Of a DNA stretch of 64,000 nucleotides, positions 36,546 through 56,121 are shown piece after piece. The notes below the pieces were generated by a model. It was not told where the DNA came from and searched no databases. It saw only the letters and a list, made by a program, of their open reading frames with translations. Within the stretch, counting starts at the first letter, position 1; each line of letters opens with the position of its first letter. This stretch comes from Bacteroidota bacterium (GTDB lineage: Bacteria > Bacteroidota > Bacteroidia > AKYH767-A > OLB10), in NCBI GenBank assembly GCA_031418215.1, contig JANOXC010000103.1, positions 47,323 through 111,322 on the forward strand, given 5' to 3'. A program made the translations under genes and the position numbers.

Positions 36546-38063
36546 TCATTTAAATTCTATTGTACCGAACCTGTAATCACCACCTGACTCAGTAATCAGA
36601 AATATTTTTTTCTCATTGATTATTGCCGCCTTATCAGGAATAAAGTAATGATAGTTGTTATTTTTCTGTGGAACTAAAGCAAATCTTTCCATTGATTCAT
36701 CATTGATGGAAACCATTACAATTTCTGTAGCATCATCAGAATGGTAAGATCTTGGTATTTCTCCGTCTTTCAAATCATGATTCCGTGGGTTATCATTATA
36801 GACAAGCAACGCATTTTTCCCAATGACAGATTCAAATGAAGCAGCTGTATTGTATGAAGAACTAAAAACCTGTTTCTTTGGTACCATTTGTATCCAGTCG
36901 AGTTTGTTTTCTGTACTAAAATGGATTACGAGCCCTTCATCAATATTGAACTGATGGTATACTGGATTTCGTATGATGTTGTATCGGTACAACTTAGGAT
37001 TGTAGGTTGCACGCTCCGCGAATACGTATAATCCGCTTTTCCTATCAAATGCATTAGTAATATAAAAGTCTTTTAAAAAAAGGTTGATTGCAGTATCAGG
37101 AGCATCCAGCATAAAATTTTTTGTTTCTCTTGAAATTTGTTTCCCTGTTACAATATCATATTGATCATGGTAAAACCCTAAGGAATACTTTCCATCCGTT
37201 GAATTGTTGAAACCAAAAACATCAATTCTATTTTTCCTTGAAATAAAAAAATAAGCTTGTTGCGGAGATTTATGAATAAACTGTAAATCACTGTGATGAA
37301 ATATTGTATCGCCATCATCAGCATAAAATATCCTGTACTGCCTGATTAAGCTGTCACCTTTGGGCCCATACACCTTTTCTTCTGTGTGTGTAAGAAGGTA
37401 AAACCGATTGAATTCATAGGTATAATTTTCAGGTTCATAGCCGAGTGATAATAATGGAAATTTGAAATCAACCTGCGAAATCAACTTTGCTTCATTATCA
37501 AGCATGAAATAACCACATCGATCAAGCCAATTATTTTTTCCTAAATATGAAACTACCAATCTGTTTCCGGAATAATAAAGACTTGCAGTGATTATTGATG
37601 TGTCCAGCTCGCCAATTACACTCCAAAGCTTTACATCCTCCTTAACCATTGTAAGCGACTCACAATCGAGTATATCTATAAAAAACTGTGTTGAACTGCC
37701 AATGTACTTCTTGGTAAAAAAATTCAATTTGCCATCAACAATTTTCGCATCAAAAAAATATTCCGATTTCCCTGCTTTTTTTAATAAAATTTTTTCGCCG
37801 ATTTTTCTAAACTGCTGATCAAATTTTACAATTTTGAATTCCCCATTCTTTCTTGCAAGAAGAAAATAATTCAAATTGTCAGCCCCTAGGAATTCATAAT
37901 TACAGTTTCCACAACGGATATTCTCACTCCAAGATTCAGTGAATGGTTGTCCATTGCTGTAAAAACAGTTTATCAGGATAAAAAAAGTAAATAATTTTAT
38001 ATATAAAAATGGCGCACTATTATTAGTACGCCATTTAATATATTTTCTAATCTTCCTAATGCT
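36546..38063 (-). CDS. hypothetical secreted protein (about 505 aa), last gene of the ACIII-oxidase operon
   Basis: It has a signal-peptide-like N-terminus (FLYIKLFTFFILINCFYS). The 5' end overlaps the ctaD stop by about 8 bp, which suggests translational coupling. Confidence 0.5.
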   Translation of the reverse strand, partial: SIRKIRKYIKWRTNNSAPFLYIKLFTFFILINCFYSNGQPFTESWSENIRCGNCNYEFLGADNLNYFLLARKNGEFKIVKFDQQFRKIGEKILLKKAGKSEYFFDAKIVDGKLNFFTKKYIGSSTQFFIDILDCESLTMVKEDVKLWSVIGELDTSIITASLYYSGNRLVVSYLGKNNWLDRCGYFMLDNEAKLISQVDFKFPLLSLGYEPENYTYEFNRFYLLTHTEEKVYGPKGDSLIRQYRIFYADDGDTIFHHSDLQFIHKSPQQAYFFISRKNRIDVFGFNNSTDGKYSLGFYHDQYDIVTGKQISRETKNFMLDAPDTAINLFLKDFYITNAFDRKSGLYVFAERATYNPKLYRYNIIRNPVYHQFNIDEGLVIHFSTENKLDWIQMVPKKQVFSSSYNTAASFESVIGKNALLVYNDNPRNHDLKDGEIPRSYHSDDATEIVMVSINDESMERFALVPQKNNNYHYFIPDKAAIINEKKIFLITESGGDYRFGTIEFK

Positions 38064-39891
38064 CATCACCCGGAATATTACTCTCCGGTGTTTCACTGTA
38101 AGGAATAGTTTGCATGATAAAATCTTCCTTTGCACCGGGTTTACCATAATCATATGGCCAACGGTGAACAGTAGGAATTGGACCGGGCCAGTTACCGTGC
38201 AAATGTTCTACAGGTGCTGTCCATTCAAGGGTGTTCGACTTCCAAGGATTCTGAACTGCTTTCTTTCCTTTCCAAATGCTGTAGAAGAAGTTGAATGCAA
38301 ATATTAACTGTGCTAAACCACCTAAGAGAGCAAACACAGTGATTAGACCATTTACATTCACCATTTCATGGAAACCTTCATATGCAGTATTAGCATAATA
38401 TCTTCTTGGCAATCCGCCGAGACCTAAAAAATGCATCGGAAAAAACACACCATATACGCTGACAACCGTCATCCAAAAGTGAATGTATCCCAATTTCTTA
38501 TTCATCATCCTTCCATATAAACGAGGGAACCAATGATAAACTCCGGCAAACATCCCGAAGATAGCTGATGATCCCATTACAATATGAAAGTGTGCCACTA
38601 CAAAATAAGTGTCGTGCACATTAATATCCAAAGCTGAATCACCAAGTATAATTCCTGTTAATCCGCCAGTGATAAAGAAGGAAACCAAACCAATGGCAAA
38701 TAACATTTGAGGCGTAAACTGAAGATTCCCTCGCCATAATGTTGTTAAATAATTAAACACTTTAACAGCCGAAGGAATAGCAACTAACAATGTAGTAAAT
38801 ACGAAAACAGAACCTAGGAATGGATTCATTCCTGTGATAAACATGTGATGGCCCCATACTATAAAGGACAGGAATGCAATCACCAACATAGAACCAATCA
38901 TTGCCTTGTAACCAAATATTGGTTTACGTGAATTAACAGCGATTACTTCAGAGGCAAGTCCTAACGCAGGCAACAATACAATATATACTTCAGGGTGACC
39001 TAGGAACCAGAATAAATGTTGAAATAAAATCGGGCTTCCTCCTAAATGATCCAACGGGGCCCCATCAATAAATATGTCAGAGAGATAAAAACTTGTTCCA
39101 AAGCTGCGGTCGAATACCAATAATAAAGCCGCTGCGAATAATACAGGGAATGAAAGTATTCCAAGGATTGCGGTGATAAAGAATGCCCATATTGTTAAAG
39201 GAAGGCGTGTCATGCTCATACCAACAGTACGAAGGTTTATAATCGTAGAAACGTAATTGATACCTCCTAATAATGCAGATGCAATAAACATAACCATACT
39301 AACCAACCACAATGTCATCCCTAATCCCGAACCGGAAATAGCTTGCGGCAATGCACTTAAAGGCGGATAGATTGTCCAACCACCTGATGCCGGGCCTCCA
39401 GTTAAAAACAAGGAGATGGTCATGATTACGCAGGATACAAAGAAGAACCAATACGACAACATGTTCAATACACCAGAAGCCATATCGCGTGCTCCTACCT
39501 GCAACGGAATTAACAAGTTACTGAAAGTTCCGCTCAACCCTCCGGTCAAAACAAAGAATACCATGATGGTTCCATGTATGGTAACAAGACCAAGATAGAA
39601 TCCGGGGTCCAGCTTTCCATCTTTCCCCCATTTCCCTAAAATGCTTTCAAGGAATGCGAATTTTGTATCAGGCCAGGCCAGCTGCAACCTGAAGATCATA
39701 CTCATTCCCATTGCCAGAAATGCCATGATGATGGCTGTAATTAGAAACTGCTTGGAAATCATTTTATGATCTGTACTGAAAACGTACTTCGTCCAGAAGT
39801 TCGTTTCATGTTCATGATCATGGTCATGACCGTGTCCATGCGCATCATGGTGCACTGTGTCTTGAGCGTGTATATGTTGATTCACTTCCAT
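38056..39891 (-). CDS. ctaD: cytochrome c oxidase subunit I
   Basis: 12 TM helices with heme-copper oxidase His ligands. The N-terminal His-rich extension is HHDAHGHGHDHDHEHE. The protein is 611 aa. Confidence 0.95.
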   Translation of the reverse strand: MEVNQHIHAQDTVHHDAHGHGHDHDHEHETNFWTKYVFSTDHKMISKQFLITAIIMAFLAMGMSMIFRLQLAWPDTKFAFLESILGKWGKDGKLDPGFYLGLVTIHGTIMVFFVLTGGLSGTFSNLLIPLQVGARDMASGVLNMLSYWFFFVSCVIMTISLFLTGGPASGGWTIYPPLSALPQAISGSGLGMTLWLVSMVMFIASALLGGINYVSTIINLRTVGMSMTRLPLTIWAFFITAILGILSFPVLFAAALLLVFDRSFGTSFYLSDIFIDGAPLDHLGGSPILFQHLFWFLGHPEVYIVLLPALGLASEVIAVNSRKPIFGYKAMIGSMLVIAFLSFIVWGHHMFITGMNPFLGSVFVFTTLLVAIPSAVKVFNYLTTLWRGNLQFTPQMLFAIGLVSFFITGGLTGIILGDSALDINVHDTYFVVAHFHIVMGSSAIFGMFAGVYHWFPRLYGRMMNKKLGYIHFWMTVVSVYGVFFPMHFLGLGGLPRRYYANTAYEGFHEMVNVNGLITVFALLGGLAQLIFAFNFFYSIWKGKKAVQNPWKSNTLEWTAPVEHLHGNWPGPIPTVHRWPYDYGKPGAKEDFIMQTIPYSETPESNIPGDEH

Positions 39892-39917
39892 GTGAAATTT
39901 TTTACGATATATATATA

Positions 39918-40982
39918 TTAATTCAATGCTGTTACTGCTTTCTTATCACTCTTACCTGAAGTTGTTTCCATTGCTGCGGGGGTTGCAGAAGATGGTGCAG
40001 CAACAGGTGCTGAAGCTGCCTTTTCAAAAACCAGTTTTTCTTTTTTCAGCCATTTGCGAAAATCATCGGGCTCATCCACTACAATTTTCATCTGCATATT
40101 ATAATGCGCTACGCCACAAATTTTATTACATAATAAAACATAATCAAATTTAGGATTGCCGGTAATCTCACGCATCTTAGCGGTAGTAATGGTAGGCTTA
40201 AAATAAAAACGTGTATTCATTCCTGGAACAGCATTCATCTGTACACGGAAATGAGGAAGATAAAAACTATGGAGAACGTCCCTGGAGTTTATTTGCACAT
40301 CAATAGGAATTCCAACAGGGAAATGCATCTCCCGGGTGATTTTATCATCAACTGAAGCCACATCCAGAGAGTCAACACCTAATGGATTATTGTCAGTGAT
40401 CTTTCTGAAACTTGAAGCCCCTAGTTTATTGTCTTTTCCTGAATAACGTGCTGTCCAGTCAAACTGCTTTCCATAAATCTGGATCTTCATACCATCTGTT
40501 TGATTTTGAGAATCGGTAATACGATTCCATTCCTTCAATCCTGTAAAAACCAATACAAGCAAAACAATTGCAGGAATAACAGTCCAGATGACTTCAATTT
40601 TATTATTATCATGGTAAAAGAAAGCCCTCCTGTTTTTATTATAGCGGTATTTAAATGCAAAGGAGAATAACAAAATCTGGGTAATAAAGAATACAATGAA
40701 TAAGATAATCCAGTTAATATTCATCAGTTCATCCAATGCAACACCATGCTCTGATGCAGATACCGGTAACAGAAAATGTTGATATCCGATCATCATATAT
40801 ACCATTAAAGCAAGCCCAATCCACAAAAACCCTACAAGCATCCAGGCATTGAAACGGTTGTCACGGTCTTGTTCAGCCTCTTCATCCTCTTCGGCCAGTT
40901 GCGACGACAACTGTGTAATGTTGGCCAGGCGCACCAACACCAGAACTCCAAAAAGAACTGCAAGTATCCAGAGTAAACTCAT
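39918..40982 (-). CDS. coxB: cytochrome c oxidase subunit II (no fused cytochrome c domain)
   Basis: It has two N-terminal TM helices and the CuA site (H...CNKICGVAHYNM). No CXXCH motif is present. Confidence 0.9.
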   Translation of the reverse strand: MSLLWILAVLFGVLVLVRLANITQLSSQLAEEDEEAEQDRDNRFNAWMLVGFLWIGLALMVYMMIGYQHFLLPVSASEHGVALDELMNINWIILFIVFFITQILLFSFAFKYRYNKNRRAFFYHDNNKIEVIWTVIPAIVLLVLVFTGLKEWNRITDSQNQTDGMKIQIYGKQFDWTARYSGKDNKLGASSFRKITDNNPLGVDSLDVASVDDKITREMHFPVGIPIDVQINSRDVLHSFYLPHFRVQMNAVPGMNTRFYFKPTITTAKMREITGNPKFDYVLLCNKICGVAHYNMQMKIVVDEPDDFRKWLKKEKLVFEKAASAPVAAPSSATPAAMETTSGKSDKKAVTALN

Positions 40983-41062
40983 ATCTGTGTATTATTTTCT
41001 GATTAATATTTTTTTTATAGAATCATGAAGCAAGCATCAAAACTTAACTTCTACTCCACAAT

Positions 41063-41110
41063 TCCTTTTTTTCTTTCTTTTTTTTTCTTGGTTCTTGGTT
41101 CTTGGTTCTT
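41063..41110. repeat. pyrimidine tract followed by (CTTGGTT)x3 heptamer microsatellite between actF and coxB
   Basis: Seen directly in the sequence. On the mRNA it reads (AAGAACC)n followed by an A-rich tract, just upstream of the coxB start. Confidence 0.6.
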
Positions 41111-41118
41111 ATATCTAT

Positions 41119-42354
41119 TTAAAGCACATGATGAAGACTTTCTTCCATCATTGGATGGTTCTTAATAACCAGCGGCGCTTTTGATAAATGATGTTGTACC
41201 ATATACATAAACAATCCAAGGAATCCTATCGTTGTACCAATCTCCATCCATCCAACAGTTCCAATTAACGGATGGCCTTCATGTGAATGCAATGCCATAC
41301 TTCCAGGAATTACCATGATGTAGGTATCCATCCAGTGACCAATAAACAACAATACCGACATTGACATCAATAACTTTATCTTCCGTTTTGCATCGCGTGT
41401 CATTAAAATAATAAATGGACAGATAAAGTTGATTAAAAACGCTGCTATCCACATCGTGCGATAGTGATCCTGACGTAACATGAAATAGGTAATTTCTTCA
41501 GGAATGTTGGCATACCAGATCAACATGAATTGAGCAAACCAGAGGTAGGTCCAGAAGATGCTGAATGCAAACATAAATTTGCCAATATCCTGAATATGAT
41601 TTTCTGTTACTTCTGGCAAATAGCCTTTTGACTTTAAAAAGCCTACGGTGAATGCGAGTATTGAAAGACAGGTAATAAACATCCCTGCAAAAGTATACCA
41701 GCCAAACAAAGTGCTGAACCAATGTGTTTCAATCGACATTACAAAATCCCATGACATGGTAGAAGAAGTAATGGCGAACAACACAAGGAATGCTGCAGCA
41801 AAACGTTTATTTGCATTGTAAGAATCAACAGCGCTTCCCAATTCTGCATCCATCTTTAAGGAGTTCTTGCGGAAGATAAAAGCAAATCCGCACCAAATTA
41901 TAAAATACGCAACCAAACGAATCCAAAAAAATGGAACATTTAAAAATCCTGATTTTCCTGCAATAATAGCATCATACTCCGGTGATTTAGGATCTGTAAT
42001 TTCCGGATTCATCCAGTGATACAAATGATGCCCGCCAAAAAACACAATCAGCACCATAATTGCTCCTGCAACAAATAAATACTGGCTCATGGCTTCCAAC
42101 ACTCGCTTGATAACGGCGCTCCATCCTACTTCAGCTACGTATTGAATAGCAAGAAAAAAAGTTGCTCCCAAAGCCATTAACATGAAATAATAATTATTCA
42201 TCAGCAGATTCGGCCACGTCTGATTATAATGTGTAGCGAACTGTGCGACCACAGCCACCAGCCCGATAATTATCATGATGCCGGCAATCATCCTGCTACG
42301 TGTTTTGAACTCGTAGGGCTGAGTACTTGTTACTTCTTTATGTTGATGATTCAT
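41119..42354 (-). CDS. actF: Alternative Complex III subunit ActF (quinol:cytochrome c oxidoreductase membrane subunit)
   Basis: It is a polytopic NrfD-like membrane protein (411 aa) in the canonical position after ActE. Confidence 0.8.
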   Translation of the reverse strand: MNHQHKEVTSTQPYEFKTRSRMIAGIMIIIGLVAVVAQFATHYNQTWPNLLMNNYYFMLMALGATFFLAIQYVAEVGWSAVIKRVLEAMSQYLFVAGAIMVLIVFFGGHHLYHWMNPEITDPKSPEYDAIIAGKSGFLNVPFFWIRLVAYFIIWCGFAFIFRKNSLKMDAELGSAVDSYNANKRFAAAFLVLFAITSSTMSWDFVMSIETHWFSTLFGWYTFAGMFITCLSILAFTVGFLKSKGYLPEVTENHIQDIGKFMFAFSIFWTYLWFAQFMLIWYANIPEEITYFMLRQDHYRTMWIAAFLINFICPFIILMTRDAKRKIKLLMSMSVLLFIGHWMDTYIMVIPGSMALHSHEGHPLIGTVGWMEIGTTIGFLGLFMYMVQHHLSKAPLVIKNHPMMEESLHHVL

Positions 42355-42406
42355 CTTAATGGTGTATTCCGTTTTATATATAAATCCCGGCTTTTGCCTA
42401 ATGCAA

Positions 42407-43039
42407 TTATTTTGAAGCTGTTACTGTAGAATCCTTGGTCGCTGACGCATTATCAACTGGTGCAGCTCCTTTCATAATGCTACGCACGAACATTATAATT
42501 TTCCATCTTTCTGTTGGATTTATTTGTGATGCATGTGAACCCATCAGGTTGATTCCATAAGTAATCGTATGAAATATTTTCCCATCGGTAAGATCTTTCA
42601 TATCTCCTCCACGAGAGGATTTTCCTGTGGTGTAAGATGGAGGCGCGGGAAACTTTCCGGTTGCAATTAGTGAGCCATCAGCTAGTCCGCCTTCCCCATG
42701 GCAATGCATGCAGAAAATATCATACAATCTTTTTCCTTCCTCAAGATTTTCCTTAGTCTCAGGAAATAAATTCTTCATGTCTTTTCCGGCTGCTTCATAA
42801 CCTTCATTGGATGCAGGATAAGGGAAAAAGGCATACCCTCTTGGCAATGTGCCGACAACGGGATGTTGCATGGTAAGGCTGTCTTTAAAATTTGGGTTAC
42901 CGGAATATACTTCATAGGAAGAAGAACGATACATGTCGGGCATGTATTCGAGACCCGGTTGTTTTGGGTCTTTGCCACAGGATGCAATAACAATTATCAT
43001 TGCAACGGCAGCAAAGGCTATATATATTCTTTTATTCAT
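42407..43039 (-). CDS. actE: ACIII monoheme cytochrome c subunit ActE (lipoprotein)
   Basis: It has a lipoprotein-like signal (ASCGKD) and a single CMHCHG heme motif. The protein is 210 aa. Confidence 0.8.
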   Translation of the reverse strand: MNKRIYIAFAAVAMIIVIASCGKDPKQPGLEYMPDMYRSSSYEVYSGNPNFKDSLTMQHPVVGTLPRGYAFFPYPASNEGYEAAGKDMKNLFPETKENLEEGKRLYDIFCMHCHGEGGLADGSLIATGKFPAPPSYTTGKSSRGGDMKDLTDGKIFHTITYGINLMGSHASQINPTERWKIIMFVRSIMKGAAPVDNASATKDSTVTASK

Positions 43040-43094
43040 ACTATTCTAATATATATTTTAAATTAATGTATCTGAGCGGGCAGCATTATTGTAT

Positions 43095-43619
43095 TTATCC
43101 TTTTGTTTCTACAGCACCTGCCTGCATAAACATTCCTTTAATAGCTTCTGATGATTGTCCTTCTTTTACCTGAACAGTCATCACAAAATGATCATCAGCC
43201 TGACGCGGATCCAGTATAACAGGCTCCACACCGGGCAATAGTTTACTACGCAAGTAGAATGTAATTACCATTCCATGCGCAGCACAAAGCACAGTACTTT
43301 CAAATATGATGGGTACGTATGCAGGAAGATTTTTATAGAAAGCAAAAGATGGCTTTCCACCTATATCCATTGGCCAGTCGAAGATGTTCATGTACCAGAT
43401 CATCAGCATCGCCAGACAGCTGCCTGTCATTCCATAAATGAAACAGCAAATGGAAATACGTGTGCGTTTCAATCCAAGCACTTCATCGATACCATGAATA
43501 GGAAATGGAGAAACAACATCTTTTACATTCAATCCCTGGGCACGTAACTGAGGGATAGCATTTAACACCATTTCATCATCATTAAAGATGCCATATATAA
43601 ATTTCTTAGCAGCGCTCAT
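43095..43619 (-). CDS. actD: ACIII subunit ActD (DUF3341)
   Basis: 174 aa with a TM segment. Synteny with actC/actE supports the call. It overlaps actC by 4 bp. Confidence 0.75.
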   Translation of the reverse strand: MSAAKKFIYGIFNDDEMVLNAIPQLRAQGLNVKDVVSPFPIHGIDEVLGLKRTRISICCFIYGMTGSCLAMLMIWYMNIFDWPMDIGGKPSFAFYKNLPAYVPIIFESTVLCAAHGMVITFYLRSKLLPGVEPVILDPRQADDHFVMTVQVKEGQSSEAIKGMFMQAGAVETKG

Positions 43620-45013
43620 GAATGTACCTCCTTGCTTTTTAATACTTGTGCTTTTTTGGATTTTTCACCAGATGATTTAATGATTGTTTTTAACTCGCTC
43701 ATTGCAATTACCGGGAAGAATCGGGTAAACAACAGGAAGCAGGTGAAGAACAGTCCCAGTGAACCAATAAAAATTCCGATCTCGACCCATGTAGGGTGAT
43801 ACATCGTCCAACTGGAAGGAATATAATCACGGTGAAGTGAAGTAACGATAATTACAAATCGTTCGAACCACATACCGACGTTTACAAAAATACTAATGAT
43901 AAATGTGGCGAAAATACTTTCACGTAAACGCTTACTCCAGAATAACTGCGGTGTAATAACGTTGCAGGTCATCATACTCCAGTATGCCCACCAGTAAGGA
44001 CCGGTAGCACGATTGATAAATGCATATTGTTCATATTCCACTCCTGAATACCAGGCTATGAAAAATTCAGTAATGTAGGCAACACCTACAATAGAACCGG
44101 TGATAAGGATTACGCGGTTCATCATATCAATATGATAAACTGTTATGTATTCTTCCAGACCTAACACTTTACGAGTAATGATTAACAATGTTTGAACCAT
44201 TGCAAAACCTGAAAAGATGGCACCGGCCACAAAGTATGGAGGGAAGATAGTTGTATGCCAACCCGGAACAACCGACGTGGCAAAGTCCATTGATACTACT
44301 GAGTGAACTGAAAGTACAAGTGGTGTGGAAATTCCTGCAAGCACTAATGATACCTCTTCAAATCGCTGCCAGTTCTTTGCTGTTCCTGTCCAGCCGAAGC
44401 TCAAGATTGTATACCAGAATTTTCTTGCCTTTGTTTTTGCACGATCACGTACAACAGCAAAATCAGGAATTAAACCGGTATACCAGAAAACCAATGATAC
44501 AGAAAAGTAAGTAGAGATTGCAAATACATCCCACACAAGGGGAGAGTTAAAGTTTACCCATAATGAACCAAACTGGTTGGCTAATGGCAACGGCCAATAT
44601 GCTACCCATGGACGACCCATGTGTGCTACAATAAAAGATGCTGCACATATTACGGCAAAGATGGTCATCGCCTCTGCTGAACGATTGATGGATAAGCGCC
44701 ATTTCTGACGAAATAATAATAGAATCGCTGAGATAAGCGTTCCGGCATGACCAATACCCACCCACCAAACGAAGTTGGTAATATCCCATGCCCAGCCTAC
44801 CGTTTTATTGAGACCCCAAACACCAAGGCCCGTGCCTACGGTATAGGATACAACAATGAGCCACCAAATAAATGCGGCTAATGAAAAGCTAAATGCAAGC
44901 CACCACCATTTATTAGCCTTGCCCTCAATAGGCCTGCATACATCTTCTGTGATGCTGTGCCATGTTTTATCACCCAAAATTAATGGCGGGCGTAGATTTG
45001 ATTCTTTTTGCAT
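43616..45013 (-). CDS. actC: ACIII subunit ActC (NrfD/PsrC-like quinol-interacting membrane subunit)
   Basis: It is a 465-aa polytopic membrane protein of the polysulfide-reductase NrfD family type. Confidence 0.85.
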   Translation of the reverse strand: MQKESNLRPPLILGDKTWHSITEDVCRPIEGKANKWWWLAFSFSLAAFIWWLIVVSYTVGTGLGVWGLNKTVGWAWDITNFVWWVGIGHAGTLISAILLLFRQKWRLSINRSAEAMTIFAVICAASFIVAHMGRPWVAYWPLPLANQFGSLWVNFNSPLVWDVFAISTYFSVSLVFWYTGLIPDFAVVRDRAKTKARKFWYTILSFGWTGTAKNWQRFEEVSLVLAGISTPLVLSVHSVVSMDFATSVVPGWHTTIFPPYFVAGAIFSGFAMVQTLLIITRKVLGLEEYITVYHIDMMNRVILITGSIVGVAYITEFFIAWYSGVEYEQYAFINRATGPYWWAYWSMMTCNVITPQLFWSKRLRESIFATFIISIFVNVGMWFERFVIIVTSLHRDYIPSSWTMYHPTWVEIGIFIGSLGLFFTCFLLFTRFFPVIAMSELKTIIKSSGEKSKKAQVLKSKEVHS

Positions 45014-45063
45014 AGATGAATAAAATTTCTTGTTAGTTGCCTCTTAATTGCTAATATATATAA

Positions 45064-48000
45064 TCAGGCTTCTTTTTTCTCTGATACTTTATTACGAACC
45101 TTGGTGTGATAATAAACTGATGGCTGTGTATCCAGCTCTTCCAATAAACTGTAAGAACGAGGATCGGCATTTGCTTTCACTATCTCACTTTCTTTATCCA
45201 AAGAATCACCAAAGATGATTGCATTGGTAGGGCATGATTGTGCACATGCTGTTTTTATCTCTCCGTCAATTGGTCGACGTCCTGCTTTCTTGGCATCAAG
45301 CTTACCATATTGAATACGTTGAATACACATCGTGCATTTTTCCATTACACCACGTGAGCGAACAACGACATCTGGATTCAACACCATCTTGCCTAAGTTG
45401 TCATACTGGTTATAAGGGAACTGCTCATTCTCGTTGTAGCGGAACCAATTAAATCTTCTTACTTTATATGGACAGTTATTCGCACAATATCTGGTACCTA
45501 CACAACGGTTGTAAGCCATCATGTTTAATCCTTCCATACTATGTGTTGTTGCTACAACTGGACAAACCGTTTCACAAGGTGCATGATTACAATGTTGACA
45601 CATAACCGGCTGAAACACCACCTCCGGGTTATCGGCTGCCGGCTTCTCCATCTCGGCATACATACTTAATTTGCCTAATTTTTTTGCTTCAGCATTCTCT
45701 TTAGTCGTATCGCTGCTGTAATAACGATCGATACGGATCCAATGCATCTCGCGGCTGCGGCCAATTTCATCTTTACCAACAACAGGAACATTATTTTCCG
45801 CAGTACAAGCAACCACACAAGCGCCACATCCAATACATGCATTCAAATCAATGGACATGTTCCAGAAGTGATTTGTTTTGGGGTGACCGGGATTTTTTTC
45901 CGTAGCCCACAAGTCCAACTCACCAGGTTTCTTCTTACCATAAGGAGAAGCTATTGTTAATTGGGCATTACCTGAATTTGGTTTTACTAACCACTCAGCT
46001 AATGTTGTCTCCTTTACAATTTCGCGACCCATCATGGTATGGTGCGTCTGCGTTGTTGCAAGTTCATATAAATCATCCGGAGTCTTTGTTACACTTACAC
46101 CGGTTGCATAATATTTCATCGCTCCATTCTCAACGCTAACGAATGGATAAACGTTAACTCCAACATTGTTGCCAGCTTTACCAACCTTTGTTCTTCCATA
46201 TCCTAAGGCTATGGCTAAAGTTTCATCCGTCATTCCGGGTTGCAGCAATACAGGGCCTTTTATTTTAAAGTCTCCTGCCTTCACTTCAATTACTGTTCCC
46301 TGAACGTAACCCATCTTCTTTGCATATGCAGGTAATACAGCAAAGTAATTATCCCAACACACTTTTGAAACCGGATCCGGTAATTCCTGCAACCATGGAT
46401 TATTAGCCTGGTTACCATCACCCAATCCTGTTTTTGTATACAATACTAATTCAACACCAGGTTTTGGTTGTTGTGTTTTTGCAGCAGCATCTTGAATATT
46501 GCCTGTGAATGCCACAACAGCACCGGCATTAACATTTATTTCAAATATTCCGTCCTGTAAAGATTTATTCCAAAAAGCTTCAAATGAACTCATACCAGAC
46601 TGCTGAGAAAACATATTTGCTTTCCAATACTCTTCTATATATGTATGGAAATCCGTATTTGCAGCTTCAGCCCAAGTTAATAGACTTGATTGTGCTTGTC
46701 TTGTATCAAACAAATTCTCAATAGTTGGTTGGCCGAGGCTAAAAACACCTTTTATGGGTTCAGCATCACTCCATGACTCCAGATAATGAGAATCAGGACA
46801 GATATAATCACAAACGGCGGAAGTTTCGTCCTCGCGATCAGCAAAAGAAATTTTTACGCCTGCTTTATTAATTGCTGCTTGCAATGCAGGCATGCTATAT
46901 CCGGGGTTTGCATTATATATAATCACAGCTCCCACTTCACCGTTGTTTAGTTCAGTGATAAGTGAAGCAACTGCTTCATCGTTACTTGCACGTATTAAAT
47001 AGGGCTGATCAGCATTGATGGTGTTACCATAGCTTCCCAACATACTGTTAATAGCATTCACAAGCACTTGCTCATTGGGATCATTAGATCCGGAAACAAC
47101 AAGAGCCTTTCCTTTTGCATTCCATAATTCCTGTGCTACGGAGTCAATTGTTTTATCGGCTGGAATGGATGGTGCATTTACTGCTACTCCTCCTGACAAT
47201 GATGCAATCTTATTATATAAGGCAGCCACTGCAGCACTCTGTTCACTTGCACGAATCTTGTAGCGGTTGTCGGCATTTGATCCGGTTAAAGAAAGCATGG
47301 TTTCAAACTGAATATGTCTTGACATATTTTTCTTGCCCCCACGCAGTTTCCTTGTAGCTGCATACTGACGTGAAATTTCAATTGGCGACAACCAATTCAC
47401 GAGGAAGTCAGCACCGAAGCTTACAATTACATCTGCCTTATCAAAGCGGTATCCCGGAATTGAAAACTTTCCAAATGACAATTCATTTCCTTTTAATAAG
47501 CCGTAACTTGAAACAGCATCATACACCACTTGTTTGGTAGTAGGGTATTTAGCAGTAAAATCAGTCATCACCTTTTTAGTAGAAGGACTGCTAACAGAAG
47601 AAGAGAGAATAACAATCTTTTTTCCCGATGCACTTACTTCAGCTAATTTCTTTTTTATTTCACCATCGACAGAAGCCCATGTTGATACTTTTTTATTGGC
47701 TAACGGACCTTTTAAACGTGCACTGTCATATAATCCCAAAACAGAAGCCTGCACCCGTGCACTCGTTCCACCTTTTGAAAATGAAGATAATTCATTGCCT
47801 TCGATTTTAATTGGGCGACCTTCACGTGTCTTTACAAGCACACTGCAATAATCACTGCCGTCAAAATAGGTAGAAGCATAATAATTAGGAACCCCTAATG
47901 TTAACTCCTCAGGCTTTATTACATAAGGAATTGCCTTTTTAACAGGGGCCTGACAAGCTGCTAAGGAAGCGGCTGCTACACTGAATCCCATGAATTTCAA

Positions 48001-48153
48001 AAAGTCTCTTCTTGAGGTGTTATCTGTTGAAGATGCTTTATTACTCATCACTTCATCAACAGGAAGGTGCTCAAAAAATTCATTGTTCTTCAAACGAACG
48101 AATTCCGCATCGTTTTGCAGTTCTTCAACACCTTTCCAATATTGTTTTTCCAT
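45064..48153 (-). CDS. actB: ACIII subunit ActB (fused molybdopterin-oxidoreductase-like B1 plus 4Fe-4S ferredoxin B2; Tat signal)
   Basis: The Tat motif is RRDFLKFMGFSVAAASLAAC. It has a large MopB-like domain. The C-terminal region has several CxxCxxCxxxCP iron-sulfur clusters. Confidence 0.9.
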   Translation of the reverse strand: MEKQYWKGVEELQNDAEFVRLKNNEFFEHLPVDEVMSNKASSTDNTSRRDFLKFMGFSVAAASLAACQAPVKKAIPYVIKPEELTLGVPNYYASTYFDGSDYCSVLVKTREGRPIKIEGNELSSFSKGGTSARVQASVLGLYDSARLKGPLANKKVSTWASVDGEIKKKLAEVSASGKKIVILSSSVSSPSTKKVMTDFTAKYPTTKQVVYDAVSSYGLLKGNELSFGKFSIPGYRFDKADVIVSFGADFLVNWLSPIEISRQYAATRKLRGGKKNMSRHIQFETMLSLTGSNADNRYKIRASEQSAAVAALYNKIASLSGGVAVNAPSIPADKTIDSVAQELWNAKGKALVVSGSNDPNEQVLVNAINSMLGSYGNTINADQPYLIRASNDEAVASLITELNNGEVGAVIIYNANPGYSMPALQAAINKAGVKISFADREDETSAVCDYICPDSHYLESWSDAEPIKGVFSLGQPTIENLFDTRQAQSSLLTWAEAANTDFHTYIEEYWKANMFSQQSGMSSFEAFWNKSLQDGIFEINVNAGAVVAFTGNIQDAAAKTQQPKPGVELVLYTKTGLGDGNQANNPWLQELPDPVSKVCWDNYFAVLPAYAKKMGYVQGTVIEVKAGDFKIKGPVLLQPGMTDETLAIALGYGRTKVGKAGNNVGVNVYPFVSVENGAMKYYATGVSVTKTPDDLYELATTQTHHTMMGREIVKETTLAEWLVKPNSGNAQLTIASPYGKKKPGELDLWATEKNPGHPKTNHFWNMSIDLNACIGCGACVVACTAENNVPVVGKDEIGRSREMHWIRIDRYYSSDTTKENAEAKKLGKLSMYAEMEKPAADNPEVVFQPVMCQHCNHAPCETVCPVVATTHSMEGLNMMAYNRCVGTRYCANNCPYKVRRFNWFRYNENEQFPYNQYDNLGKMVLNPDVVVRSRGVMEKCTMCIQRIQYGKLDAKKAGRRPIDGEIKTACAQSCPTNAIIFGDSLDKESEIVKANADPRSYSLLEELDTQPSVYYHTKVRNKVSEKKEA

Positions 48154-48260
48154 AGCTTAGTTATTGGTTATTGGGCTAAAACGTACATTTATAAATGCAC
48201 TCAAACTATCCCAATTCTTTTTATTTTCCTGATAACTTAATTATCTAATTACTGAATTAT

Positions 48261-49496
48261 TTAATAATGGCAACGCGCACATTCTAACCCACCAATTTTA
48301 TCGACGGTTATTTTTGCATCCTTACCATATTGCTTTTTCATATCCTCATGAAGCGCTGTGTAATATCCATTGCCTTCCATTTTTACTTCTGTATCACGGT
48401 GACACTGGATGCACCATCCCATATTTAAAGGAGAGAACTGCTTAACTACCTCCATTTCCTGAACAGGGCCATGACAGGTTTGGCATTCAATCTTGCCTAC
48501 TACTACATGCTGAGAGTGGTTGAAGTATGCCAAATCTGGCAGATTATGAATACGTACCCACTGAATAGCTTTTCCGGGACCGGTATATTGTGCCTTTGAC
48601 GCATCCCATCCAACTGCATCATATATTTTTTGAATTTCTTCTTTCCCATATTGCGCCCCGGTCTGAACATATTTATGACAATTCATGCAGACATTTGGAG
48701 AAGGTATTCCGGCGTTTTTACTTTTCTCTGCTCCTGAGTGGCAGTATTTGCAATTGATGCCATTGGTCCCGGCATGCATAGCATGTGAAAATTTAATAGG
48801 CTGATCAGGTTGATAATTTAGTTCCTGACCTATTCCGGCCAAAGCATACCATCCCTTGTAACTGCTTACTACAGCACCCACAATTAAAAATACAGCTATT
48901 AATTTTTTGTGTTCGCGAATCCAGTGCTTGGTTCCCGCTTTGCCTTTCAAAACAACCGGTTCTGGCGTCCCTTCATTCTGACGAACTACTCTTTCAAGGC
49001 TTTTCTTTACCCTATTTAATATAGCGTAAATTCCAATCAACGCAATTACAACGATAACCAGCATCCAAGGAAAGCCTTCATCTTCCCCGGAAGCAGCTCC
49101 GGCAACTGGTGCGGCAGTTGTTGCTACTGCAGGCGCCTTATCATTTTCTGCTTTAACATAGGCCAAAACGGCTTTGATTTCCTCATCATTTAATGCCTGA
49201 GATGGCATCACCACTTTGTTGTTTTCCTCAAAAAGTTTCACAGCAGTGGCTTCGCCGCTTTTAATTACAGCCTGCGAATTCTTTATCCAAGGAAGAAGCC
49301 ATGCGAGGGTGCGTCTTTTCTCAACATCCTTTAACCCGGGGCCAATTACTTTACTGTCGCTTGTTGCATGACAGGAAGCACAATTGTTTTGGAACAGGAC
49401 TTTACCATCAGGCTGTGCTGATATGGGTTGGGAAGAAAACAAGAATAAAAACCCAATAAGGGCGATACAGCATTTACCGGTAATCTTGTGAATCAT
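48261..49496 (-). CDS. actA: ACIII multiheme cytochrome c subunit ActA with an additional N-terminal monoheme class-I cytochrome c domain (6 CXXCH in total)
   Basis: The CXXCH motifs are CASCH, CKYCH, CMNCH, CQTCH, CIQCH and CARCH. There are two internal TM helices. The start was trimmed to the Met that gives a signal peptide (MIHKITGKCCIALIGFLFLFSS). Confidence 0.85.
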   Translation of the reverse strand: MIHKITGKCCIALIGFLFLFSSQPISAQPDGKVLFQNNCASCHATSDSKVIGPGLKDVEKRRTLAWLLPWIKNSQAVIKSGEATAVKLFEENNKVVMPSQALNDEEIKAVLAYVKAENDKAPAVATTAAPVAGAASGEDEGFPWMLVIVVIALIGIYAILNRVKKSLERVVRQNEGTPEPVVLKGKAGTKHWIREHKKLIAVFLIVGAVVSSYKGWYALAGIGQELNYQPDQPIKFSHAMHAGTNGINCKYCHSGAEKSKNAGIPSPNVCMNCHKYVQTGAQYGKEEIQKIYDAVGWDASKAQYTGPGKAIQWVRIHNLPDLAYFNHSQHVVVGKIECQTCHGPVQEMEVVKQFSPLNMGWCIQCHRDTEVKMEGNGYYTALHEDMKKQYGKDAKITVDKIGGLECARCHY

Positions 49497-49829
49497 AGTT
49501 ACATGATTAATAGTTAAGCGTTTACGGAAGATTTTTACCAATTCCTGACAATTATCCCGCAAAAGTGTGGGCAAATTTAACAGAAACAACAGGAAAGCAA
49601 ATTTTTATGGGGGATATTTTTACACGTTTTTCCACTTATTTTTAGTTCAGGCTTAAGTTAATTGGAATCAACTACTAAAAAAATTAAAAATGAAGAATCA
49701 AAATTTTTTTAAAATGCCGAAGATCGATTTTGAAAGCAAATGAATAATAGAAGACGTTGAAGTATGCTTCCGTTTTATTTTCTACAACAAAATACATTTC
49801 TATTGTTTTACCAATACTTTTGCATTGAA

Positions 49830-50216
49830 ATGATGCTACGATTTTCAATTGTATTTATTTGCTTATTCAATTCTGCGATTTTATTTGGTCAGTCTTTTAA
49901 GTCACAAGACAGCTTGGTGAACCAATTGATAGAGCGCCAAAAAGCAATCAATGCACAAAAGATGACAATGTCGGGTTACCGTATTCAACTTTTTTTTGGT
50001 GGCGACCGGGCAAGGGCAAATAATATGCGTCTGGACTTTTTACAACAATATCCTGATTTGGGCGCCTATGTGATTTATCAACAGCCCAATTTCAAACTCC
50101 GCATTGGTGATTTTAAATCCAGAATGGAAGCTGCTACATTTTTGAAAGAAATGCAGCCTGGTTATTCAATGGCCTTTATTGTGCCTGATGAGGTGAAGTT
50201 GCCAGTTATCGAATAA
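49830..50216 (+). CDS. SPOR-like domain protein (small, secreted/anchored)
   Basis: The N-terminal hydrophobic segment is followed by a region resembling the C-terminal SPOR fold (GYRIQLFFGGDRARANNMRLDFLQQYPDLGAYV...FKLRIGDF). The start was trimmed to the internal Met. Confidence 0.5.
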   Translation: MMLRFSIVFICLFNSAILFGQSFKSQDSLVNQLIERQKAINAQKMTMSGYRIQLFFGGDRARANNMRLDFLQQYPDLGAYVIYQQPNFKLRIGDFKSRMEAATFLKEMQPGYSMAFIVPDEVKLPVIE

Positions 50217-50250
50217 CAGAAAAATCAGCGCTTTTGGTATAAACTTTATG

Positions 50251-50391
50251 TTTGAGTTGGTTTGAGTTGGTTTGAATTGGTTTGAATTAGTTTGAGTTGG
50301 TTTAGATAAGTTAATATCAAACCTTTTATTTTTAGCGAAACCAGAAACCAGAAACCAGAAACTAGAAACTAGAAACTAGAAACTAGAAACC
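50251..50391. repeat. two adjacent microsatellite arrays: (GTTTGAGTTG)x~5.5 at 50251-50305 and (GAAACCA)x3 plus (GAAACTA)x4 at 50337-50391, separated by 31 bp. They end 12 bp before the DUF1211 start codon.
   Basis: Seen directly in the sequence. The unit cores are partially reverse-complementary (GGTTTG vs CAAACC). Confidence 0.8.
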
Positions 50392-50402
50392 TTTTCCAAA
50401 CC

Positions 50403-51091
50403 ATGGAAGACGAAAAACCATATTTAATGGAAGAAATCCGTAAAGAATTCCAATTGGAACGCATGGTGCTTTTTAGTGATGCCGTTTCCGCCATTGTAAT
50501 CACTTTGATGGCCATAGAAATACACTTGCCTCAATTTTCTGAGAAAATGACTGAGGCTGTATTAGTTCATGAGCTGAAGCTTTTATTGCCTGTTTTTTTG
50601 CATACCTGGTAAGCTTCGTTTTCATCGGACAATCCTGGTATCGGCATTTGAAATTCTTCAGCCTATTAAAAGATTACGACAAAGGTTTGGTCGTCCGAAA
50701 CCTGGTGATGTTGTTTTTTATTGGATTATTCCCTTTCGGTGCATCACTGGTTTCCCAAAGCGGAGGGCTTACAACACCCATCTATATTTATTTTGGCATC
50801 ATATTCTGCTGCACAACAGCCCAGTATGTATTAAATTACTACATTGTTTATCAGCGTCCACATTTGTGCCGGATCACCAATACCAAAGAGGAAAAAGAAT
50901 CACTGAAAAAAAGCAGGGATTTCCTGATTGGATTAATGGCAATAATGTTGTTGATCTTTATTACTAATGAGGTTATTACAGACCCCGATCTCAAGCCACT
51001 TTCCGCAATTTGGGCATTGGTGTTTTTGGCGATAAGAAAGCTATCTTCAATGAAGAAAAGTGCCAGAAAAGCTACTCCTAAATCAAAATAA
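50403..51091 (+). pseudogene. DUF1211 (TMEM175-like) membrane protein gene interrupted by a +1 frameshift in a T7 homopolymer (50593-50599)
   Basis: ORF 50403-50612 ends 'LLPVFLHTW*'. Reading the +1 frame from the T-tract gives 'AYLVSFVFIGQSWYRHLKFFSLLKDYDKG', which continues into ORF 50648-51091. Together the two segments form one DUF1211-type protein of about 229 aa. Confidence 0.65.
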
Positions 51092-51472
51092 TGTAAAACT
51101 TAAGATGCTAACACCTTGGCATTCGGATATTTCACTGTCCACAATTTTAAGGCAGACATGTGAGGGATAGTAATAAAGGTGCGTTCATCTAATTGAACTT
51201 TAATTTTTGCTTTCGTAGGAGCCTGCGTCATGATGCGGTTCTTTACTCTACTGGGATATTTATTTTTCATAGTACGAAGATAACCTTATTTAGCCAAATA
51301 AATTGCATAAACACTAATAAATATTACACTTATCAACAACGTAACATTGAAAATCAATGGGTAAGCTTCATTTGTTAGCTAAACTTTAACTTTTAGCTCA
51401 ATTCCTTTACAGTTGAGGGTTTGAAGGGCATTGGTCATTATTAGCCAAAAAGACCTTCATTCTTGCTTGAAC

Positions 51473-51480
51473 TATATTTG
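51473..51480 (+). promoter_or_regulatory. candidate Bacteroidota -7 promoter element TATATTTG (TAnnTTTG), 20 nt upstream of the SIMPL gene ATG
   Basis: It matches the consensus and the spacing is typical of short Bacteroidota leaders. Confidence 0.3.
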
Positions 51481-51500
51481 CAACCCAATTAGCTAATCCG

Positions 51501-52223
51501 ATGAAAAAAACAATACTCTTGGCCCTTTTGACAACTTTTACATGGAATGCCTTGTTTGCCCAACCAACCAATAGTTTACCCATTCCGGTTAAAAAAATTG
51601 AAGTTACCGGAATCGCTGAGATGGAAGTTGTGCCTGATGAAATATATATAGGTATAACACTTCAGGAATACTACAACAAACAAAAAGTAAAAATTGATAT
51701 TAATGAGATTTCGAAAAAGTTCCTGGCAACATGCGAGATGTCGGGTATCACTAAAGAAAGAATAGAAGTTCAAAATATGTCGGGATTTGATAATACGAAT
51801 TGGTGGAATAGCAGAAGAAAAAAGGAACAACCTGATTTATTGCAAGCTACAACTTATTTATTAAAATTCAACGCTCCCGGTGAAGTTGATAAGCTTGTAA
51901 ATATGTTGGATGATAACGCTACGCAGAATGTATTTGTTAGTAAAACATCAAGCTCAAAGGAAAAAGAATACCGTAAACAACTTAAAATTCAAGCTTTACA
52001 AAACGCAAAAGTAAAAGCAAACTATTTGTTGGAAGGTATTGGTGAAAAAGCAGGAAAGGTATTGTTTGTGAAAGAAGTTGACGCTGCACAACCAGAGTAT
52101 CCAATGTATCAAATGAAAATGGCAAATACAATGATGGCAGGTGATGCCGGCGCCAATGAAGGAATTAATTTCAAAAAAATAAAATACAGTTTTCAGGTGG
52201 AAGCACATTTTGCAATTGAATAG
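51501..52223 (+). CDS. SIMPL domain (DUF541) periplasmic protein
   Basis: It has a signal peptide and the SIMPL-like N-terminal core KIEVTGIAEMEVVPDEIYIGITLQ. The protein is 240 aa. Confidence 0.7.
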   Translation: MKKTILLALLTTFTWNALFAQPTNSLPIPVKKIEVTGIAEMEVVPDEIYIGITLQEYYNKQKVKIDINEISKKFLATCEMSGITKERIEVQNMSGFDNTNWWNSRRKKEQPDLLQATTYLLKFNAPGEVDKLVNMLDDNATQNVFVSKTSSSKEKEYRKQLKIQALQNAKVKANYLLEGIGEKAGKVLFVKEVDAAQPEYPMYQMKMANTMMAGDAGANEGINFKKIKYSFQVEAHFAIE

Positions 52224-52232
52224 AAAAAAAAC

Positions 52233-52436
52233 AATTTGAAAATTCGAAAATTCGACAATTTGAAAATGAAGCCATAATTAATCCTTATCTGTATAAGAGG
52301 CAAGGATGAGTCTGAATTTTTAAACTGAAAATTGAATTATTCTCCTCAATAATTTATTGATAAAATGAAAGGAATATATATTCCATTTAAATAAACAGAC
52401 AATTATCTAATTTTCAAATTGTCGAATTTTCAAATT
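52233..52436. repeat. inverted repeat pair: 27-bp perfect IR (AATTTGAAAATTCGACAATTTGAAAAT / reverse complement; the left copy has an 8-bp internal duplication) bracketing a 142-bp AT-rich segment
   Basis: Seen directly in the sequence. IR-L is at 52233-52267 and IR-R at 52410-52436. It is intergenic, between the SIMPL gene and the cytochrome c gene. Confidence 0.8.
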
Positions 52437-52473
52437 AAAAACATCTATTTTCACCAACCAAACCCAACACACT

Positions 52474-53088
52474 ATGTTCACAGGAATGTTACACACCCAT
52501 AAATTAGTAGTTACCCTTTTTCTGCTGATTTACCTCATCAAAACTATTTTACTGCTGCTGAATAAAAATGAAACACTGCAAAGTTTTATCAAAAAAACAC
52601 GCATCGCTGAAATGATCATTAGTGTTGCTTTTCTGGCAACAGGAATATATCTGGCTAATAACAGTGGCAACATCGGACAATTATTTTGGATCAAAATTAT
52701 ATGCGTTGCTGCTTCCATCCCAATTGCTGTAGTTGCCTTTAAAAAATCAAAAAAAGCACTTGCGGTATTGGCTCTTTTATTAATAATAGCTTCCTACGGT
52801 TTAGGTGAAATGGGAAAGAAAGGTAAGAAAACCAATCCTCAGGAATTTGCAAATGTTGAAGCAGCACAATTGGGCCAATCGATTTATGAAAAGAAATGCA
52901 TGAATTGTCATGGCGCAGATGGAAAACTGGGACTCAGCGGTTCAAAAGATCTGACGGTTTCCGTATTGACACGGGAAGAAAAAATAATTGCAATCAAAGA
53001 AGGCAAGAATGCCATGATGAGCTTTAAGGATCAACTGGACGATGAGCAGATAAACGCTGTCGTTGACTATGTTTCTCAATTCAAATAG
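52474..53088 (+). CDS. membrane-anchored class I c-type cytochrome (4 TM N-domain plus monoheme CMNCHG domain)
   Basis: Four hydrophobic helices are followed by a single CXXCH motif and a Met-containing distal region (NAMMSF). Confidence 0.75.
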   Translation: MFTGMLHTHKLVVTLFLLIYLIKTILLLLNKNETLQSFIKKTRIAEMIISVAFLATGIYLANNSGNIGQLFWIKIICVAASIPIAVVAFKKSKKALAVLALLLIIASYGLGEMGKKGKKTNPQEFANVEAAQLGQSIYEKKCMNCHGADGKLGLSGSKDLTVSVLTREEKIIAIKEGKNAMMSFKDQLDDEQINAVVDYVSQFK

Positions 53089-54490: not shown

Positions 54491-54567
54491 AATAATTTGA
54501 GGCATTTTTTTCATTCACAAACCAAACCTTTAAACTTTCATCGAAATTAATTTAGCTAAAAAACAAA

Positions 54568-56121
54568 ATGAAACATTCCATTTTAACAATATTATTTGCA
54601 TTAAGTGCACTTATTACATCGGCTCAACAAACAAGTTTTGAATTAACTGCAAATATTACGAACAATGATGTGGCCGCAGATATAGTCGAAAACGCAGATG
54701 GTGATTTTGTTGCGGTAACAACAACCGTTGTTTCCAATAATTTTGATGTAACACTTATTAAATTTTCTGCTGCCGGAGTGGTACTTGCAACGGCAACTAT
54801 TGGCACATCGCAAAATGAGATTGCAAAGTCTATTTGCACCACTGCTGATGGTGGATATTTCATAACCGGGTATGCGAATACGACATTTAGCGACAATGAT
54901 GCGCTTGTAATAAAAGTTGATTCAAGTTTCCAGATTCAATTTATGAAAAGGTTTGGAACTACTCCGGGTAATGATTATGCAAACGAGGGATTTGAAGCCT
55001 CTCCAGGTCAATTTACTTTTACCGGTACTATTGCAATTGGAGGAAGTGCAAAGCCATCCAGGGTTACTTTGGATGAAAACGGTATTGTAATCAGTCAATC
55101 ATATTTGAACACCAATCAATTTGCCAGCCCGAATTACCGTGGAAACTATCTTGGCAATGGCTTAATTGGGTTCGCACATCTTTCAAATGCAATTTCTATT
55201 GTAGACACTTCCGGAAATGTTGTAAGGGATTTTCCTTTTACAGCAGGTACATTCACCTCTTCTGTCATAAGGACAAATGACGGTAAGTTTGTGGCTATTG
55301 GATTAGCAAACTTAGGTGGGTCAAGCACGACCGTTTCTTTTTGTAAAGCAGATACCACTACGAATTTACTTTCCATGACCAATGAATATGGATACAACGG
55401 CTTCAGCCTTGAGCCTGTAGGAATAGTTCAAGATGCTCAAAATAATTATTTCATTGCCGTTAACAAGATTGATAATGGCACCGGTTTCAGTAAAGCGATG
55501 GTTGTTAAAACAAATCCTTTAGGAACCGTTTTATGGGGTAAGCAATATAACGCTGTGTCAACAATTGATGGGCGCGTGAACAGTATAATTCTTACATCTG
55601 ATGGCGGAATTATGATTGCCGGAAGTATTGATTTAACCGGCACGAATCCTGATTTGTTTTTTGCTAAAATAGATTCTTTTGGTTCCAGTACATGTAATAC
55701 ATTAACTGTCACTATTGCATCATCAACTTATAGCCCAAATTCCGCTACACCGCATACTATGAATGCAGGGACAATAAACACCATTACTTTAGGAACACCC
55801 TATGATTTTCCTGTAACGCCGCTACCTAATTTAATGTGCATTACCATCGATATAAATGATGTCACAGCTAAAGATATGAGTGTTAAGGTATACCCAACCT
55901 TGTTTGATCAGTTTGTTACTGTTGAATCAGATGAACCATCACAACGCCTGAATGTTTGTATTACTGATCTGAATGGTAGCGAAGTTTTTAGAAAATCATT
56001 TTATGGAAATGAACAACTAAACCTCAGCAACCTTGCTTCTGGAAGTTATATTATTAATATTGAAAATGCAGAAAAGTCGCAGACTATTCACCGTAAACTG
56101 ATAAAAGCAACGTTTCATTAA
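54568..56121 (+). CDS. secreted beta-propeller-like repeat protein with a T9SS type-A C-terminal sorting domain
   Basis: It has the signal peptide MKHSILTILFALSALITSAQ and repeated 'DGG..I.G' blades. The C-terminus 'VKVYPTLFDQFVTVE...SGSYIINIEN...' matches a Por sorting domain. Confidence 0.75.
   Translation: MKHSILTILFALSALITSAQQTSFELTANITNNDVAADIVENADGDFVAVTTTVVSNNFDVTLIKFSAAGVVLATATIGTSQNEIAKSICTTADGGYFITGYANTTFSDNDALVIKVDSSFQIQFMKRFGTTPGNDYANEGFEASPGQFTFTGTIAIGGSAKPSRVTLDENGIVISQSYLNTNQFASPNYRGNYLGNGLIGFAHLSNAISIVDTSGNVVRDFPFTAGTFTSSVIRTNDGKFVAIGLANLGGSSTTVSFCKADTTTNLLSMTNEYGYNGFSLEPVGIVQDAQNNYFIAVNKIDNGTGFSKAMVVKTNPLGTVLWGKQYNAVSTIDGRVNSIILTSDGGIMIAGSIDLTGTNPDLFFAKIDSFGSSTCNTLTVTIASSTYSPNSATPHTMNAGTINTITLGTPYDFPVTPLPNLMCITIDINDVTAKDMSVKVYPTLFDQFVTVESDEPSQRLNVCITDLNGSEVFRKSFYGNEQLNLSNLASGSYIINIENAEKSQTIHRKLIKATFH

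Follow-up and report, generated by a model that had tools for sequence, protein, structure and literature searches.

The bacterial TMEM175 K+ channels, represented by MtTMEM175 of Marivirga tractuosa and CmTMEM175 (PDB 5VRE), are the closest described relatives of the gene examined here; the role that these proteins play in bacteria is itself unclear (PMC7176437). The roles given below to the RxxxFSD signature of helix 1 and to the Trp and His of helix 2 are those of the MtTMEM175 structure paper, in which Asp30 and Arg24, the equivalents of the Asp and Arg of the signature, hold the helix 1–3 network and the tetramer together (PMC7176437). In the contingency loci of Neisseria, Haemophilus, Campylobacter, and Helicobacter, the length of a coding mononucleotide run sets the reading frame. 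The minimum tract at which PhasomeIt calls a poly-T run phase-variable is 11 (PMC5953494). Bacterial pseudogenes are quickly removed (Kuo and Ochman 2010, PMC2916853). Programmed -1 frameshifting, as in dnaX and IS elements, combines a slippery-type heptamer with a downstream frame at -1. In insect endosymbionts, and for mxiE in Shigella, frameshifted genes are rescued when the polymerase slips on long A/T runs, and efficient transcriptional slippage is known from runs of at least nine bases.

The window, i.e., the whole 64,000-nucleotide stretch of DNA analyzed here, contained one 229-aa TMEM175/DUF1211 gene in two halves, an ORF at 50403–50612 and an ORF at 50600–51091, both on the forward strand. 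Read straight from the sequence, the T run at which the two halves part was seven bases long and occupied exactly positions 50593–50599, within CCT GTT TTT TTG CAT ACC TGG TAA, with the stop codon at 50610–50612. The N-terminal fragment (50403–50612, 69 codons) matched Pfam PF06736 on its own (E = 2.6e-7); it covered helix 1, with R20-x3-F24-S25-D26, and the first half of helix 2, and ended with four out-of-frame codons (LHTW) before the TAA. The C-terminal part (50600–51091) covered the second half of helix 2 (W79, H82) and helices 3–6, as judged from the alignment and from the six hydrophobic segments obtained after repair. It was read in the -1 frame, which is open from 50573, and this downstream frame of 163 codons remains open. 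The earlier note had placed the C-terminal part at 50648–51091; its identity was right, but its start was not, as the homologous frame runs from 50600 and the TTG at 50648, 16 codons into that frame, is only the first possible start codon. Gene callers called the C-terminal ORF on no public contig, and a functional split channel was rejected, as helix 2 is destroyed and a TTG is the only start available to this ORF.

Adding one T to the T7 run gave a 229-aa product that matched PF06736 over model positions 1–88 of 88, scoring 77.6 bits where the Pfam gathering score is 25 (E = 1e-21), while no NCBIfam model matched the repaired protein. Sequence matches in the PDB were human TMEM175 (6w8n, E = 3.6e-15) and the cyanobacterial CmTMEM175 (5vre, E = 6.4e-11). 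When compared with 14 intact homologues, the repaired protein aligned without a gap over the junction, where LLPVFFAYLVSF stood against LLPVLFAY and LLPMFFAY, and the alignment was gapless only when one T was added; the restored junction is spanned by LLLPVFFAYLVSFVFIGQSWYR. The invariant P63 directly precedes the T run and the conserved A67 and Y68 immediately follow it, which places the missing base within the run. Both the Pfam match and the gapless repaired alignment bear out the earlier proposal that a single-base change in a T run divides one TMEM175/DUF1211 gene. The direction of the shift, given as +1, had to be reversed: one base is missing from the gene, the frame beyond the run lies at -1, and a ribosome would need a -1 slip to enter it. 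The repaired protein carried the RxxxFSD signature on helix 1 (R20, F24-S25-D26) together with its helix-2 partners W79 and H82, and had six hydrophobic segments, based on hydropathy only, at about residues 21–41, 57–78, 97–117, 124–144, 173–192, and 199–215. The reading frame itself is interrupted, being lost at 50593–50599, and by its sequence the locus is classed as a member of the TMEM175/DUF1211 family by descent, but as a pseudogene.

T7 and A7 runs are frequent in the window, with 17 T7 and 36 A7 (53 together) in 64 kb at 38% GC, so the tract itself is not unusual. It encodes Val-Phe-Phe at conserved hydrophobic positions in an AT-rich genome, and an intact homologue of the Ferruginibacter type reads ATG TTT TTT GCA at the same site. 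The ancestor of the 1-bp deletion site is inferred to be GTT TTT TTT (Val-Phe-Phe, T8). This T8 would be the longest homopolymer of the repaired gene, which would make it the likeliest place for a slippage deletion.

The 69-aa product was present in a collection of 15 billion proteins drawn from NCBI, Logan, and ENA sources, and its exact look-up led to 10 contigs from nine independent metagenome samples. These were the Logan assemblies SRR23617247 and SRR20217212, the k141-type (MEGAHIT-style) ENA assemblies ERZ27314301, ERZ27314275, and ERZ27315198, and the scaffold-type ENA assemblies ERZ28573510, ERZ28573519, ERZ28573537, and ERZ28573559; the product was also recorded on an NCBI contig 153,983 bp long. 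The run was T7 in 10 of 10 contigs (nine samples), all of them consensus assemblies and as such blind to a minority of T8. All 10 contigs were about 100% identical to the window, and the gene varied among contigs of the window lineage at a single position, where one contig has the SNP 50987 G>T (Asp to Tyr). The window lineage is thereby nearly clonal in public data, and the uniform T7 may reflect one recent clone, not long-term fixation; “fixed” is used here in the sense of fixed within one sampled clone complex. Neither the exact T8 product nor the exact T5 product occurred among the roughly 15 billion public proteins. The full-length match closest to the repaired protein was 57% identical, the 69-aa fragment was the sole member of its 90% cluster, and a search with this fragment returned no diverged relative bearing the shifted tail. 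Scans with the repaired protein found no close relative in GTDB genomes and JGI metagenomes, the source species being absent from the GTDB representatives; relatives were instead found through exact look-ups of flanking proteins.

Two microsatellites lie upstream of the gene on the forward strand, as the earlier note had observed. TRF placed a decamer repeat (GTTTGAGTTG; 5.4 copies) at 50250–50303, between the gene for a SPOR-domain protein and the pseudogene, and a heptamer repeat (GAAACCA/GAAACTA; 7.9 copies) at 50337–50391, ending 12 nt before the ATG. The heptamer array, immediately ahead of the pseudogene, is a genuine variable-number repeat: it had 6, 7, 8, 10, 12, or 13 units on contigs otherwise identical to the window, i.e., at least six length alleles. 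Situated about 200 nt upstream of the T run, it provides an internal control on the very contigs that carry T7: since heptamer lengths vary on these contigs, the assemblies do capture length variation here where it is present, and the T run shows none. Many assemblies break within the heptamer array. In a sister lineage, described below, the arrays were homologous short versions that varied there too, with only about three copies of the heptamer and with a decamer array that was shorter in contig L096 and longer in contig L113; both arrays were absent from relatives without the gene. The intergenic array pair folded no more stably than shuffled sequences (z = -0.45), and a scan for sigma-70 promoters and terminators, which is ill suited to Bacteroidota promoters, gave nothing above the shuffled expectation. 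The arrays are read here as slippage-prone leader or promoter-region sequence of a gene no longer under selection.

The order of C-type and T-type heptamer units also differed among contigs L007–L014. On three contigs (L007, positions 1–411; L008, 1–94; L108, 890–1827), unrelated DNA was joined exactly within the heptamer array; one array-joined contig ran from the SPOR gene through the array into a UPRTase gene, and the foreign flank of L007 bore an inverted copy of the heptamer (GTTTCTAGTTTCTTGTTTCAGG). Such joins are either chimeras formed via similar arrays in this or co-occurring genomes, or real rearrangements. Elsewhere in the window, paired intergenic arrays were found at 7264–7332 and 7392–7460, where a purine-rich (TAGGAGGC)n precedes a pyrimidine-rich (TTCTTCGC)n, and at 52233–52267 and 52401–52436, which were of the AATTCGAA type and apparent reverse complements around about 130 nt. 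Together with the decamer and heptamer at 50250–50391, these paired arrays look like a recurring intergenic architecture of the genome. A tandem repeat at 11400–11531, with 22/44-nt units in 6 and 2.2 copies, lay in a 340-nt gap between ORFs.

Two flanking genes served as synteny anchors, upstream the SPOR-domain protein gene (49764–50216, forward strand; Pfam PF05036), which lies next to the ActA gene in relatives, and downstream the gene for a 56-aa protein (51100–51270, reverse strand), which is convergent with the pseudogene and encodes a 100% identical protein in seven related contigs. The nearest GTDB genomes were uncultured Bacteroidota MAGs, many from lakes and rivers, with ActB 70–78% identical; among 80 GTDB relatives, no TMEM175 gene was found within 8 kb of ActB, and the SPOR gene beside ActA was conserved. 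Closer relatives were found by a look-up of the downstream 56-aa gene. One of these, a sister lineage with SPOR 87% and ActA 83% identical, had a syntenic TMEM175 gene between the SPOR gene and the 56-aa gene. This copy carried TAA at codon 9, which is ATG in the window, and D26Y in the FSD motif, at an Asp that is otherwise invariant, and L096 and L113, which come from independent samples, share both lesions exactly. Where the window has its T run, the sister copy has CCG ATC ATT TTA GCT, in frame; a restart at Met21 would cost it Arg20. In four further contigs (L098, L100, L101, and L102; SPOR 68–81% identical), the SPOR gene and the 56-aa gene lay about 240 nt apart, with neither TMEM175 nor microsatellites in between. 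One clade shows the locus frameshifted, nonsense-mutated, and empty; the empty locus results either from loss in those relatives or from gain in the clade of the window and its sister.

The 56-aa ORF at 51100–51270 on the reverse strand (MKNKYPSRVKNRIMTQAPTKAKIKVQLDERTFITIPHMSALKLWTVKYPNAKVLAS) differed from the window at 20–25 of 171 nt in the seven related contigs, all differences being synonymous, and the proteins neighboring it were only 68–87% identical across those contigs. The 56-aa protein belonged to no Pfam or NCBIfam family and had only nine homologous clusters, with 69–100% identity and none of them named. We take it to be a real, very strongly constrained, and clade-restricted small protein. 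Further upstream in the window, the reverse strand at 38056–49589 held alternative complex III genes (a multihaem cytochrome ActA-like, a 1030-aa Fe-S ActB-like, an NrfD-type ActC, ActD, and a cytochrome c), with cytochrome oxidase subunit I next in order. The Bacteroidota origin of the DNA was confirmed by a T9SS-sorted protein at 54556–56121, and the host is an uncultured, freshwater-type Bacteroidota bacterium.

Of the 72 family columns with a conservation of 90% or more, the repaired protein departed from one (F29S), which is also the median number for intact members, and the sister copy from three. Both disabled copies look young. Between the window gene and its sister ortholog, pS was 0.87 and dN 0.27, synonymous sites being saturated, so that no dN/dS was derived. 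Given this saturation between the lineages and the undecayed state of the copies, both lesions should be much younger than the lineage split. An undecayed gene would also fit the rapid removal of bacterial pseudogenes (Kuo and Ochman 2010). At codon 29 (50487–50489), the nearly invariant Phe of helix 1 is replaced by Ser in the window and by Tyr in its sister; the constraint on the channel may already have been relaxed in their common ancestor.

The best explanation, to which we assign a probability of roughly 80%, is that a dispensable gene of the TMEM175 family underwent a T8-to-T7 deletion that is recent and fixed, i.e., a real and population-wide loss of function. Replication slippage would have dropped one T from the T8 (GTT TTT TTT, Val64-Phe65-Phe66) in the part of the gene coding for helix 2. 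Translation would then stop after 69 residues, with helix 1 kept and W79, H82, and helices 3–6 gone, and a six-helix subunit that must tetramerise cannot come from such a 69-aa product. The gene would be dispensable in the clade and on its way out; its dispensability follows from the independent disabling of the sister copy and from the empty position in further relatives. The locus combines a reproducible disabling lesion, uniform over the samples, with an independent lesion in the sister lineage and with absence of the gene in other relatives. We infer that full-length protein is not produced in any useful quantity and that the deletion occurred recently. The earlier note had preferred not to see a dead pseudogene here and had named a uniform T7 with the same stop as the outcome that would speak for one, and this is what was found at assembly level. 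Two observations run counter to a pseudogene, namely that, apart from the frameshift, the coding sequence is undecayed and its 163-codon downstream frame open, as would also be expected under continued use via slippage, and that the heptamer at the break, U_UUU_UUG, is formally slippery.

Homopolymer indels are a classic type of error, and a genome with a true T8 could have been misread in sequencing or assembly. However, the identical T7 came from nine independent samples and at least three assembly pipelines, with different assemblers, which excludes an assembly error for all practical purposes; the large neighboring ORFs, of up to 1571 codons, were also intact. The earlier note had likewise set this explanation aside. 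General frameshift noise in the assembly was also considered and rejected, as the other ORFs of the window ran long without interruption and those neighboring pairs that were tested proved to be separate genes. Slipped-strand phase variation, which the earlier note had favored, would have the run switch between T7 (OFF) and T8 (ON) at high frequency, with the sampled populations mostly OFF. The tract does set the frame, which is broken with T7 and intact with T8, and a frameshift in a homopolymer is in principle reversible; the remainder of the gene is undecayed, and the neighboring heptamer array shows the locus to be slippage-prone. Yet such switching is highly unlikely, as T7 was found in 10 of 10 contigs from nine samples, with no ON allele in public collections and no difference in tract length between samples. 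T7 is not of switching length, being short against the poly-T minimum of 11 in the published pipeline (PMC5953494), and T7/A7 runs are commonplace (53 in 64 kb), this one being a by-product of Val-Phe-Phe codons. A comparison of orthologous loci, which the earlier note had suggested as a check, went against switching as well: the sister copy carries TAA and D26Y, the four related contigs are without the gene, and no T8 allele was seen. Nonsense and missense changes in the sister lineage and absence of the gene elsewhere indicate dispensability, not contingency.

Recoding is the other way in which the gene could still be in use, with a low level of full-length channel made by -1 ribosomal slippage or by an RNA polymerase adding a U, the frameshift being tolerated or regulatory. 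In the zero frame, G UUU UUU UG holds a heptamer of the X_XXY_YYZ form (U_UUU_UUG at 50594–50600), a -1 shift at this heptamer leads exactly into the homologous frame, and no decay was seen over the 72 conserved columns. A stimulatory RNA structure was not found downstream, however, as the 115 nt at 50586–50700 folded no better than shuffled sequences (z = +0.91; 166 of 200 shuffles folded at least as well), and Rfam gave no match at E ≤ 1 over 49500–52600. The frameshift was not common to the sister lineage or to any diverged relative, and TMEM175 fragments of other lineages break at other sites. At seven bases, the run is also shorter than the runs known for efficient transcriptional slippage. 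Moreover, the nonsense codon of the sister copy is beyond such rescue, yet the sister gene is equally undecayed (three of 72 columns), and taken with the points above this makes recoding quite improbable. It would likewise be a long shot that T7 is tolerated as a permanent expression damper, with slippage on the U run giving little full-length channel and the heptamer array acting as a second tunable layer. Slippage rescue, if true, would be a rare case outside endosymbionts, here in a free-living member of the Bacteroidota.

In other metagenomes, Bacteroidota-like sequences (P0122–P0127, P0134, and P0136) had short N-terminal TMEM175 fragments with out-of-frame tails, which broke at various T-rich sites, after roughly 63, 75, 100, and 105 residues. 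These could be errors, contig ends, or further pseudogenes, and T-rich coding may make the TMEM175 family prone to frameshifts.

A recent pseudogene of this sort is an ordinary finding, and has little importance beyond correct annotation. The locus should be annotated as a TMEM175-family pseudogene (frameshifted), and not as a phase-variable gene, an assembly error, or a pair of hypothetical proteins. On a small scale, it exemplifies gene loss at three stages within an uncultured clade, as a frameshift, as a nonsense plus a motif mutation, and as absence, and it illustrates that public metagenome assemblies can replace strain comparisons for testing claims of phase variation.

Compared with the bacterial TMEM175 channels (MtTMEM175 and CmTMEM175), the repaired protein had in common the full PF06736 match, the RxxxFSD signature, and W79/H82, and was likewise about 230 aa long with six hydrophobic segments. 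The window gene differs from them in that its frame is broken in helix 2, so that no six-helix subunit is encoded, and in a nearly invariant residue of helix 1 (F29S). As in the contingency loci of Neisseria, Haemophilus, Campylobacter, and Helicobacter, a coding mononucleotide run sets the frame by its length; however, the window tract is short (T7), consists of ordinary Val-Phe-Phe codons, and shows no length polymorphism in 10 contigs. Unlike those loci, it lies in an ion channel gene and not in a surface, restriction-modification, or glycosylation gene, it has no ON allele, and the relatives are disabled or without the gene by other routes. With programmed -1 frameshifting (dnaX, IS elements) and slippage rescue (endosymbiont poly-A runs, mxiE) it shares a slippery-type heptamer and a downstream frame at -1, whereas the window site is without a downstream structure, its shift is unconserved, and its run is shorter than efficient slippage sites. 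The likeness is closest to young pseudogenes under deletional bias (Kuo and Ochman 2010), which likewise show a single lesion in an otherwise intact gene, an independent lesion in a sister lineage, and complete absence of the gene in relatives.
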